Source: a virus
Reading direction: 5' to 3' (one strand)
IMG/VR virus record: IMGVR_UViG_3300023284_001453
Length of the DNA stretch: 40,189 bases
Shown here piece by piece: positions 20,121-22,456 of the stretch; positions within the stretch are counted from its first letter, which is position 1, and every line of letters starts with the position of its first letter. The position numbers were made by a program, and so were the translations under genes. The notes under the pieces were generated by a model, which was not told where the DNA came from, made no database searches, and was given only the letters and a program-made list of their open reading frames with translations.

Positions 20121-20155
20121 CAAAAAAGATATGGCGGGCTATCAACCCGCCATAT
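20121..20155 (-). terminator. rho-independent terminator after the 589-aa membrane protein gene
   Basis: Perfect 10-bp stem ATATGGCGGG / CCCGCCATAT with a 7-nt loop, followed on the minus strand by CTTTTTTG. Confidence 0.6.
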
Positions 20156-20174
20156 CACAACAATCACAGACCCC

Positions 20175-21944
20175 TTATTCTTTAGGAGCCTCTTCGGTCT
20201 GAGCCTCTTCGACCGCAGCTTCTACCTCCATCTGAGTTTCAGATCGTTGAAACGTAAGTCTCTGGTTATCGAATTTAATCATATCGACGATAGAACGTCC
20301 AGCATCGTCATAATGGATTGTAACAAGATCACCAGGCAAAGTTATAGGCAACTCTGCCGAATTAAGACCAGCAGCGCCTGAAAATACCCTATCGGGCTCA
20401 TCGCGAATAACTATGTAGAAATAGCTAGTGCCGTCGATAACTTCAGTGCCAAATCGTGCTACATAGCCTTCCACCATCAGAGCATTTGCACCAGCATCCG
20501 TTCCAGCAACATTGCCTTTGCTGCGGAGGGAAGAGCGGAAAGCCCTCAGTGCGCTCTTAATAAGAGTATGGCTTACGACAACATCGCGATTAACAACACT
20601 TGCTATACCAATCTGTTTTGGATTGCCATCGGCATCCTTGATGATAGCAATGTAAGTCGGATGGCCGCCAACATTGTAGAGGATACAGTTTGTTACAGTC
20701 CAACCATCCTTCTCGGCAACCAGACCAGCAATATTTCGCATACAAGCTTGCTCGGTAATGCCTGACTGCTTATAATACTTCGCCTTACCAGTGCGAGTAT
20801 CGACTAACATAAATCCAGTCGTGCCTTGATCTGCGCCATCGCTCTGGATACCAGTATACCACTTGGCGCGGCCGTCGCTACCATAAACAAGACTTAGACC
20901 GCTATCGAGACCAGAACCAGGAGTGTGTTTCAGCTTATCAAGACCTTCAAAGTTACCCCAAAAACCATGAACCCACTCACCCCAATCATCCACCTGTTCA
21001 GCGATAAACGATTCGGGCTGGACTCGGTCAATCCATTCCGGAACCTTATCCAAATCATATTCTGTGATTTCGCGGGTTTGCGGATCAACAACAATCACGC
21101 CGTTGGCAACATCACCGGAATAACCAACTGTGCGTTCATAACGAGTAATCACCCAATACGGACGCCACTTGTCATCGACCTCAAACGTAAAATCAGTATA
21201 AGGTGTAGCAGCATAACCATTACGCCAAATATGACGATTTAAATCATCCCACATATAGGCACCTTCACCGACCTTAAGGCTTAGCGGCTTGCCAGCAACT
21301 TCCTTAACCAAACGAACATCACGCTGATTAAAAGCACTTACTACCATATAGCCAGGAGTTCCTTCGGCGCCGAACGCCCATTTAGTTGGGCCATCCCACT
21401 CAAGAGGTCCAACCCAAAACAGTTTCCCGCCAACATTCTGAATTCGCATGGCGCCAATTTCAACTCGGCTGCCAAGACCCGGATCTTCACCCAACTTGGT
21501 TTCAGCAAGCTTAACAGCAAGTGTCTGATCTACCATACGAGTTTGAGTAGGATCGATATAGGCGACATCAGAATCAAATTCGCCAGTCGCATCCACCTCA
21601 CCGCCACTTAGGATGGTGCGATAGTCATCTGCATTGCCCATCATCACAGGAGTAGCAAAGAATGGGATGACCACAGAGAAAACTAAACCAGTAGCACAAA
21701 TAGTAAGTCCCATCATTGTTGATATAGTATTCTTGCTTCCTCCGACAAAGAGAATAACCCCACCTAAGATCATAACGAAAACAGGAATTTCGTAGAATCC
21801 GTAAGAAAGTGTTGGAGTTAAAAGATACACTGTGAAATAGGTTACAATTGCTGTTACTATAGCAGTAAAAATGCCCATGCCTCCGCGAATACAGGCGAAG
21901 GCAATAGCAGCGAAGACGGCTGCGAAAATTAACGAAATAATCAT
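20175..21944 (-). CDS. membrane protein of unknown function (about 4 N-terminal TM helices plus a large Trp/Gly-rich extracytoplasmic domain). Lies in a GC-rich island.
   Basis: 589 aa. The N-terminal 100 aa are strongly hydrophobic. GC is markedly higher than in the flanks. An AAGGGAG SD precedes the ATG. Confidence 0.55.
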   Translation of the reverse strand: MIISLIFAAVFAAIAFACIRGGMGIFTAIVTAIVTYFTVYLLTPTLSYGFYEIPVFVMILGGVILFVGGSKNTISTMMGLTICATGLVFSVVIPFFATPVMMGNADDYRTILSGGEVDATGEFDSDVAYIDPTQTRMVDQTLAVKLAETKLGEDPGLGSRVEIGAMRIQNVGGKLFWVGPLEWDGPTKWAFGAEGTPGYMVVSAFNQRDVRLVKEVAGKPLSLKVGEGAYMWDDLNRHIWRNGYAATPYTDFTFEVDDKWRPYWVITRYERTVGYSGDVANGVIVVDPQTREITEYDLDKVPEWIDRVQPESFIAEQVDDWGEWVHGFWGNFEGLDKLKHTPGSGLDSGLSLVYGSDGRAKWYTGIQSDGADQGTTGFMLVDTRTGKAKYYKQSGITEQACMRNIAGLVAEKDGWTVTNCILYNVGGHPTYIAIIKDADGNPKQIGIASVVNRDVVVSHTLIKSALRAFRSSLRSKGNVAGTDAGANALMVEGYVARFGTEVIDGTSYFYIVIRDEPDRVFSGAAGLNSAELPITLPGDLVTIHYDDAGRSIVDMIKFDNQRLTFQRSETQMEVEAAVEEAQTEEAPKE

Positions 21945-22130
21945 TTGAAATCTCCCTTACATACAGTTTTCGTGATCATCACATGGTACAAGAGGTGTAG
22001 GCTCAACCAACGTAGTTAATGTATGTACTACTAACGGGGTTGGCCCTAAAAGTCGTCTCCGTTAATAGACATAAAGACGAAGATCAGCCCAGCTACAATA
22101 ATTGTAGCCGAGCCAATCATAATCGATCGT

Positions 22131-22310
22131 TTAGCAGGAACCGTTGCCCTCGATACAGGCCGCCGTGCTGGTCATCTCGTTCTCGACCGCATTGCTCAGC
22201 AACTCGGCGGCGGTGATGATGCCGGCCGCAACGAACGCTAGAAGCAGCGCATACTCAACCGAGGAAATGCCGCTCTCGTCGTTCCAGAGATTGGTTAGAA
22301 AATTACGCAT
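22131..22310 (-). CDS. flp: Flp/Fap-family type IVb (Tad) prepilin
   Basis: The 60-aa product MRNFLTNLWNDESG/ISSVEYALLLAFVAAGIITA matches the Flp processing motif G/ATAIEYGLIAA..IA. A GGAG SD lies 7 nt upstream. The track start at 22349 is an upstream ATG with no SD. Very GC-rich. Confidence 0.6.
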   Translation of the reverse strand: MRNFLTNLWNDESGISSVEYALLLAFVAAGIITAAELLSNAVENEMTSTAACIEGNGSC

Positions 22311-22332
22311 GATAGTCTCCTTTCTGATTCGT

Positions 22333-22386
22333 GTTAAACTGTTTAACATCGTATGATTAACATAACATGAATAAAAGATTTGTCAA
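22333..22386 (-). promoter_or_regulatory. sigma70-like promoter (TTGACA-16-TATGTT) with a perfect 7-1-7 palindrome, GTTAAAC-N-GTTTAAC, in the 5' leader of the Flp gene
   Basis: Read directly on the minus strand. The palindrome at 22333-22347 lies between the -10 element and the SD. Confidence 0.4.
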
Positions 22387-22456
22387 GCGATGAATTTAAA
22401 AAATGGTTAAAATTTAGTAGGATGGTCAAGAAAATTGATAAAATATTAAGATATTG

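Follow-up and report, generated by a model that had tools for sequence, protein, structure and literature searches.

Region 20121–22390 of the virus record IMGVR_UViG_3300023284_001453 (IMG/VR), analyzed here within a window of 40,189 nt (the whole stretch of DNA under study), carries on its minus strand a gene for a Flp-type pilin (flp) and, downstream of it, a gene for a membrane protein of 589 amino acids (aa). The region is best read as a phage early transcription unit made of two unrelated pieces, namely a fragment of a bacterial tad operon and the gene of the 589-aa protein. With slightly better than even confidence, the phage would supply a functional pilin which the Tad machinery of its host processes and assembles. 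Tad pili, which also serve as phage receptors, promote adhesion, aggregation and the formation of biofilms. A phage-supplied major pilin would mean that viruses directly reprogram the Tad appendage, and would extend virus-encoded pilins, so far experimental only for an archaeal provirus, to bacteriophages. Captured host pilins carried by viruses are already known from archaea. No report of a bacteriophage-encoded Flp was found in the searchable literature, although absence there is not proof.

The phage-borne context assumed in the preliminary description of this DNA is borne out by the open reading frames (ORFs) of the window. They match 59 PHROG families, including a baseplate wedge subunit, virion structural proteins, a DNA polymerase, MazG and three homing endonucleases, and Pfam matches include T4 gp30.3 and a SegE-like GIY-YIG gene, which together indicate a viral context. 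Relatives sit on contigs of up to 142 kb. A megablast search of the region against GenBank phages gave no match, neither GenBank nor IMG/VR holds a near-identical phage, and scans of IMG/VR with the 589-aa protein, RcpC and a degenerate flp DNA motif returned no close relatives.

The Flp pilin gene and its tad-operon origin

The flp gene (22131..22310, minus strand) encodes a Flp/Tad (type IVc) prepilin with predicted cleavage after G14. The Flp motif, the homology and the canonical G/ISSVEY site agree with the preliminary description, whereas the product is 59 aa long and not 60. A 14-aa leader (MRNFLTNLWNDESG) is followed by ISSVEY… and thus by a 45-aa mature pilin (ISSVEYALLLAF…C-IEGNGS-C), which equals the solved Tad pilin chains in length; in weak matches to two of these (8u1k, 8u2b), chain residue 1 corresponds to the residue that directly follows G14. 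In the alignment, the invariant LWNDESG/ISSVEYALLLAF block represents the G/xxxxEY prepilin-peptidase motif, the columns …NDESG / ISSVEYALLLAFVAAGII… are invariant across 15 aligned sequences, and a hydrophobic helix follows the motif. Two conserved cysteines bracket a loop which is hypervariable, with 58 variants of 5–11 residues among 120 homologues. More than 1200 homologues carrying PF04964 are present in a large protein database, some under the name “Flp family type IVb pilin” or “Flp pilus assembly pilin Flp,” and the best reach E 1e-24 with 80–91% identity by BLASTP and up to 96% in local alignment. As the pilin of the window keeps all family-invariant residues, it looks like a normal, assembly-competent Flp and not like an obvious inhibitor. 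NCBIfam, PHROGs and PADLOC gave no match for either this pilin or the 589-aa protein.

In its short leader, its G/xxxxEY motif and its helical mature pilin of ~45 aa, the product resembles the Flp/Fap pilins of Tad (type IVc) systems, for example Caulobacter PilA and Pseudomonas aeruginosa Flp (8u1k, 8u2b; PMC10710030, PMC11067988). The likeness extends to the gene layout, where flp is the first tad operon gene, rcpC/cpaB is next and a hairpin follows the pilin gene. Unlike those systems, flp of the window is part of a phage genome with a GC content of ~38% and is preceded by a phage-type promoter, no genes for tad assembly were found in the window, and the pilin subfamily has a hypervariable C-terminal Cys…Cys loop of the disulfide type. 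Neither a prepilin peptidase nor any other tad gene was found among the ~60 window ORFs scanned. Similarly, a tblastn search with Flp against 50,697 GenBank phage records gave no match, and the degenerate flp motif found no bacteriophage flp in IMG/VR and matched only two contigs of metagenome-assembled genomes (MAGs) among 185,579 species representatives. On one high-GC MAG contig (L017, 3582–4625; binned as Acidimicrobiia, possibly mis-binned), three flp paralogues with differing Cys-Cys loops stand in tandem, and orphan flp copies adjoin a sigma54 activator (L007/L008) and an integrase (L022).

While the association of flp with tad genes is absent in the window itself, it is present in phage relatives, where rcpC is adjacent, and in donor-type bacterial loci, which hold the full operon. 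In the relatives L001, L002 and L013, the slot consists of rpiB, flp, a hairpin, rcpC/cpaB, a 585-aa gene and gp30.3. The rcpC/cpaB products of these three phages are intact and full-length (365–370 aa), belong to PF16976, possess an N-terminal transmembrane (TM) helix and are 56–61% identical to bacterial RcpC. Bacterial loci with the same flp-hairpin-rcpC start have a GC content of 57–67%. One of them, L009, is a full tad operon (flp-rcpC-secretin-tadG-tadE-tadF-tadZ-tadA-tadB), whose pilin is 83% identical to that of the window and whose RcpC is 56% identical to RcpC of phage L002 over the full length (BLASTP); in a Proteobacteria MAG (L018), flp is likewise followed directly by rcpC. Alleles in bacterial contexts are 83–96% identical to the pilin of the window, and the nearest alleles of all (up to 96% local identity) stand in such contexts. 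The flp-hairpin-rcpC order common to phage relatives and bacterial tad loci argues that the phages hold a captured promoter-proximal fragment of a bacterial tad operon. The upstream sequences indicate that the bacterial promoter region has been replaced by an AT-rich phage-type promoter. The donor or host was probably a high-GC bacterium, presumably a proteobacterium.

Full-length homologues of the RcpC/CpaB component of the Tad alignment complex (PMC12307814) thus exist in the three phage relatives, whereas in the window the gene is reduced to its final ~90 nt including the TAA stop (21957..22049, minus strand), with the deletion junction at ~22049–22055. Window positions 22200..22055 align to positions 2–144 of L013 and positions 22049..21902 to 1164–1320. 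Because the two segments flank L013 145–1163, ~1.0 kb comprising rcpC codons 1 to ~337 of 370 is missing here, and no intact rcpC ORF with TM anchor, SAF and RcpC domains is left in the window. The deletion is recent, since L013, the closest relative, has an intact rcpC although its counterpart of the 589-aa protein is 94% identical. In L014/L015 (81% identical), the big gene comes after flp and a hairpin that differs, and rcpC sequence is completely lacking; the more distant big-gene phages L016 (70%) and L004 (63%) possess neither flp nor rcpC. All five lineages with the insertion have kept flp. This distribution indicates that rcpC was lost at least twice, while flp was retained wherever the insertion exists. 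The resulting variant series (flp with rcpC, flp with an rcpC remnant, flp alone, neither) represents a natural genetic dissection of which part matters.

A chimeric assembly of phage and bacterial DNA is unlikely because the same phage/tad junctions recur in five independent assemblies. As a separate observation, independent assemblies of the 81% relative (L014 1–178, L015 1–142) both break inside flp, which fits an assembly collapse on a pilin sequence common to phage and host reads, or high microdiversity. A tblastn search with RcpC against GenBank phages gave only a partial match in Microcystis phage MaAM05 (274 kb; MW495066.1 29695–30141), where a hypothetical protein shows 34% identity to the N-terminal half of phage RcpC (E 6e-11).

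The composition of the region reflects its two parts. Stretch 20121–22390 has a GC content of 0.461 as opposed to 0.374 elsewhere in the window and ranks top among all stretches of 2270 bp (z 3.0; 0.03% reach 0.461; runner-up 0.426), so that GC is clearly not uniform. The sharpest peak (0.565 at 22081–22280) lies over flp. Because the values per gene differ accordingly (flp: GC 0.56, GC at third codon positions [GC3] 0.75; 589-aa ORF: GC 0.46, GC3 0.39; adjoining phage genes: GC3 0.20–0.35), the jump is strong for flp only and modest for the 589-aa ORF. The GC-rich stretch of ~2.2 kb of the preliminary description is therefore real, but a single island for both proteins is unsupported, as the two genes also differ in origin.

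Comparison of phage and bacterial copies points to a capture that is old and to captured genes that have been maintained, because the synonymous divergence (dS) of the flanking phage genes is near saturation (0.9–1.4) and the ratio of nonsynonymous to synonymous divergence (dN/dS) is low: 0.34–0.41 between phage copies of flp and 0.16–0.22 against bacterial copies, 0.17 for rcpC and 0.07–0.13 for the big ORF. An old capture is further suggested by the strong amelioration of phage rcpC, whose GC3 is 0.32–0.41 compared to 0.74 in bacterial L009; the big ORF ranges from 0.38 to 0.45 in phage copies. Conversely, flp is not ameliorated to phage composition (0.58–0.75 in phage copies, 0.67 in L009). 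Among the genes of the cassette, flp shows the lowest protein conservation between phage relatives (71–73% vs. 79–94% for its neighbors), with 24/28 identical positions in the N-terminal helix as opposed to 8/17 in the C-terminus, and every phage allele has its nearest counterparts among bacterial and not among other phage alleles. Two processes could account for this pattern, namely diversifying pressure acting on the exposed C-terminus and repeated exchange of alleles with hosts, and 59 codons do not suffice to tell them apart.

Transcription signals and the 589-aa membrane protein

The flp gene is predicted to be driven by a sigma70-type promoter of the phage early type (TTGACA-16-TATGTT, 22359..22386, minus strand), which matches at 10/12 positions in the scan and contains a TG extended -10. 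This promoter had been noted in the preliminary description, and its hexamers and AT-rich upstream region are conserved in L001/L002, where the -10 reads TATATT. The bacterial flp upstream regions (L009, L018, L007) are GC-rich and unrelated to the phage promoter region. The 5′ untranslated region (UTR) of 48 nt (22311..22358, minus strand) contains the palindrome GTTAAACAGTTTAAC at 22333–22347 and the ribosome-binding site (RBS) AGGAG at 22317–22321, 6 nt before the ATG. Since the 3′ part of the leader, that is, its last ~25 nt (TTAAC..AATCAG..GGAG), is similar to the leaders of bacterial flp genes (for example GGTTAAATCAGGGGAG in L009), the native UTR and RBS appear to have been captured along with flp.

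The palindrome itself (GTTAAACNGTTTAAC) is a perfect 7-N-7 repeat and had been taken for a repressor operator. While the repeat is present at 22333–22347, its interpretation as an operator is rejected: it is not kept in the orthologous leaders of L001/L002, whose sequence differs and is longer by 14 nt, no further copy occurs in the window even at ≤2 mismatches, and it is statistically ordinary, as the window holds six perfect 7-N-7 palindromes compared to 3.5 ± 1.9 in shuffles. The right arm of the palindrome reaches into the host-derived portion of the flp leader, and folding of the palindrome as RNA is weak (-2.5 kcal/mol, z -0.1).

A hairpin which had gone unnoticed, as had the deleted rcpC/cpaB between the ORFs and the separate origins of the latter, follows flp at 22082..22118 (minus strand). 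It consists of 17 pairs including G-U, a 3-nt loop and the tail UUCGUCUUUA, and is terminator-like in the scan (-26 kcal/mol, z -5.25). Hairpins of other sequence lie at the same position after flp in the phages L001, L002, L013 and L014 and in the bacterial loci L009, L018 and L017, and both phage and bacterial versions are strong (z -2.4 to -6.7). The element is thus a putative partial terminator or mRNA-stabilizing structure. Its presence after flp in all phage and bacterial versions despite the sequence differences points to an inherited and functionally retained attenuator or stabilizer of the pilin transcript. A 24-aa ORF at 22046–22120, which overlaps the hairpin, was rejected as a conserved peptide because its L001 counterpart is not conserved as a protein.

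The unit of flp and the 589-aa ORF is closed by an intrinsic terminator (20128..20156, minus strand), described before and here found to comprise a perfect 13-bp stem with seven GC pairs, a 3-nt loop and a T6 tail (z -4.9), in other words the GC-rich stem-loop with U tract at the unit end that characterizes rho-independent termination. Directly after it lies a new near-consensus promoter (TTGACT-16-TATAAT, 20110..20083), behind which a 48-aa ORF with one hydrophobic helix is located (19930–20076, minus strand). The same gap measures only ~146 nt in L001/L002, and the 48-aa ORF may be particular to this phage.

The 589-aa membrane protein (20175..21944, minus strand), whose ORF had also been recognized before, belongs to an unnamed family and exhibits four predicted N-terminal TM helices, alpha/beta modules, a C-terminal OB fold and an acidic C-terminal helix. 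The AlphaFold2 (AF2) model (pLDDT 81, pTM 0.74) contains the four TM helices, several helix-plus-sheet modules and the OB fold, and, judging from how charges are distributed in the TM loops, the large domain is probably extracytoplasmic. No family match was obtained in Pfam, NCBIfam, PHROGs or PADLOC, sequence and profile searches of the PDB gave no match, and a Foldseek search of the model against the PDB returned only beta-propeller-like noise of low TM-score.

Searches for the family yielded at least 503 matches. Homologues occur as stand-alone genes in Bacteroidota, Firmicutes and Alphaproteobacteria as well as in Lactobacillus and Enterococcus phages, and a search of IMG/VR with a family profile added 10 distant loci on contigs of 22–543 kb. 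In 17 other phage and bacterial loci, including L016, L004, the ten IMG/VR contigs, the Lactobacillus/Enterococcus phages and bacteria, a gene of the family is present without flp, and no recurrent neighbor family or pilus-related gene was found among 63 flanking genes of the homologues. The 589-aa gene is, judging from this distribution, an independent, widespread phage and bacterial gene of separate origin from flp, and its connection with flp is one of position, confined to this lineage. With at least 500 members, the family is large but unannotated and occurs in accessory regions of very different phages (contigs of 22 kb to 543 kb) and with both Gram-positive and Gram-negative hosts; given a confident structural model, the 589-aa protein is a tractable subject. 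On a high-GC bacterial contig (L005, 172–2991), a homologue lies directly after a gene for a SleB-like cell-wall hydrolase (Hydrolase_2), which recalls the sleB-ypeB pairing, and no other locus shows such a hydrolase next to a homologue.

Possible fate of the phage-encoded pilin

The events and processes behind this unit can be outlined as follows. The flp-hairpin-rcpC fragment would have come from a proteobacterial host of high GC content, been put under a sigma70-type phage promoter and been inserted between rpiB and an already present phage gene for a membrane protein, with rcpC later deleted in the phage of the window. Early in infection, host RNA polymerase would transcribe flp, and the hairpin after flp would end or stabilize most transcripts, so that pilin is made in excess over the downstream gene and read-through stays limited. 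The prepilin is expected to enter the inner membrane, where the host peptidase TadV/CpaA would cut after Gly14. The host Tad machine could then polymerize the phage allele, whose surface-exposed C-terminal Cys…Cys loop would differ from those of other alleles, and the infected cell would keep making Tad pili or make altered ones. The co-transcribed 589-aa protein would act as an independent accessory envelope protein. For the phage, the benefit could be sustained adhesion or aggregation, receptor remodeling or the exclusion of competitors; superinfection exclusion, adhesion and receptor masking, as proposed in the preliminary description, may likewise apply. Cyanophages carry psbA, a host-derived auxiliary gene which supplies a high-turnover host protein. 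Such auxiliary genes of large phages compare with the present case in that a host gene whose structural product is in high demand has come under phage control and purifying selection, whereas the product encoded here is a subunit of a surface appendage instead of a metabolic enzyme, and flp has kept host-like codons while rcpC was ameliorated.

That pilins captured by a virus can be assembled by the host has an experimental precedent in the archaeal virus SNJ2, whose pilins were taken from its host and are built into the dominant filaments by the host PilB-PilC machinery (PMC12426801). SNJ2 PilA1/PilA2 are, like the flp product, viral copies of host pilin genes without an own ATPase or platform (PMC12426801). 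However, SNJ2 is a temperate archaeal provirus which makes archaeal type IV pilins in lysogeny and for which assembly has been shown, while the present element concerns a large bacteriophage with lytic-type early signals, a Flp/Tad pilin and an ancestral RcpC.

Several points weigh against assembly of the phage pilin by the host. The match of the pilin to Pfam Flp_Fap (PF04964; E 2.4e-7, 30.9 bits) narrowly misses the gathering cutoff (32.2 bits), the dN/dS values of flp rest on 59 codons only, and a compatible tad machine in the host is deduced from donor-type loci only. Furthermore, the window covers only part of the phage genome, so that TadV or other tad genes of the phage may lie elsewhere. 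It is hard to see what a phage of lytic type would gain by giving pili to a cell that is about to die, so that interference would be the simpler selective story, and the adjacency of flp and the 589-aa gene, which has persisted through two losses of rcpC, could mean that their products work jointly. A more specific proposal, to be seen as tentative, is that the phage re-coats the Tad pili of the infected cell with its own fast-evolving allele and thereby changes their identity as receptor or adhesin, which would exclude rival pilus-specific phages or keep the cell in host aggregates. The host-like codons and the closeness to bacterial alleles would then reflect repeated exchange of flp, and the phages would represent the first known bacteriophage lineage with a Tad/Flp major pilin and, ancestrally, RcpC.

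Interference in the sense of superinfection exclusion, in which a foreign pilin (in some lineages together with RcpC) is over-made early and jams the Tad machine or saturates the prepilin peptidase, is considered rather unlikely. Functional retractile pili would be lost, and pilus-dependent competitors or sister virions would fail to adsorb productively. Tad pili are established phage receptors (PMC11067988) and phages often disable type IV pili against competitors, as exemplified by Aqs1 of DMS3, which is, as flp may be, an early or accessory phage gene aimed at a host pilus that doubles as phage receptor (PMC13436744). Yet the known pilus-blocking phage proteins target the ATPase and do not act as pilins: inhibitors of the Aqs1 type are small cytoplasmic binders of the PilB ATPase, while the gene of the window encodes a structural pilin which is apparently assembly-competent. 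The early-type promoter of the unit would suit interference, as would the divergence of flp, which is the fastest in the cassette at the protein level and falls mostly in the exposed C-terminus, and the hypervariable Cys-Cys loop of the family fits a receptor arms race. Nevertheless, with all invariant residues retained and up to 96% identity to bacterial alleles, the phage pilin bears no mark of a defect, and some lineages maintain a complete RcpC by purifying selection (dN/dS 0.17), which suits the building of pili better than their disruption.

Joint action of flp and the 589-aa protein as a two-part system, with the latter replacing RcpC as platform, anchor, chaperone or sensor, is quite improbable. 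The big gene occurs without flp or a pilus gene at 17 other loci, including phages of Gram-positive hosts, has no recurrent neighbor and is absent from the bacterial tad loci examined, and its adjacency to flp is simply explained by the insertion site of the tad fragment. Finally, flp could be a functionless passenger in newly acquired, decaying host DNA with the rcpC deletion as first step, which is very improbable. While the un-ameliorated GC3 of flp (0.75) and the fresh ~1-kb deletion relative to a phage with a 94% identical big protein would be expected of such a passenger, flp is intact with promoter and RBS in lineages whose flanks are near synonymous saturation (dS 0.9–1.4), its dN/dS is <0.5 and its promoter is conserved. 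Moreover, the strong amelioration of phage rcpC (GC3 0.32–0.41 vs. 0.74 in bacteria) indicates an old capture.

Neighboring genes in the window

Outside the flp unit, the window contains several further genes, all on the minus strand. An 858-aa protein (33895–36471) comprises Major Vault Protein domains (MVP_shoulder 6e-22, Vault_3 2e-12), and its only relatives in GenBank phages, with ~40% identity, belong to “huge phage” records of 462–735 kb (LR756500, LR756501, LR756503). A 1672-aa subtilase (Peptidase_S8; 8720–13738) is fused to eight He_PIG Ig-like repeats as well as cadherin-like and flagellin-IN-like segments, and its counterpart is kept in L001/L002 as a 1664-aa protein. Host-like accessory genes are dense and encode a histidine kinase (HisKA+HATPase_c; 29523–30428), for which no response regulator is visible, Hsp20 (30573–31031), an aldehyde dehydrogenase (25414–26928), a radical SAM enzyme (28368–29204), an ABC ATPase (38036–38938), a Vut_1 transporter-like protein (26930–27427), a ClpS adaptor (18153–18545) and RpiB (22457–22888). 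At 868–1497 and 2471–3004, a 177-aa ORF which matches only part of the NTPase domain of DNA polymerase III alpha and a homing-endonuclease-like ORF (phrog_314) lie ~1 kb apart, and a polymerase gene may here be split by a mobile endonuclease.

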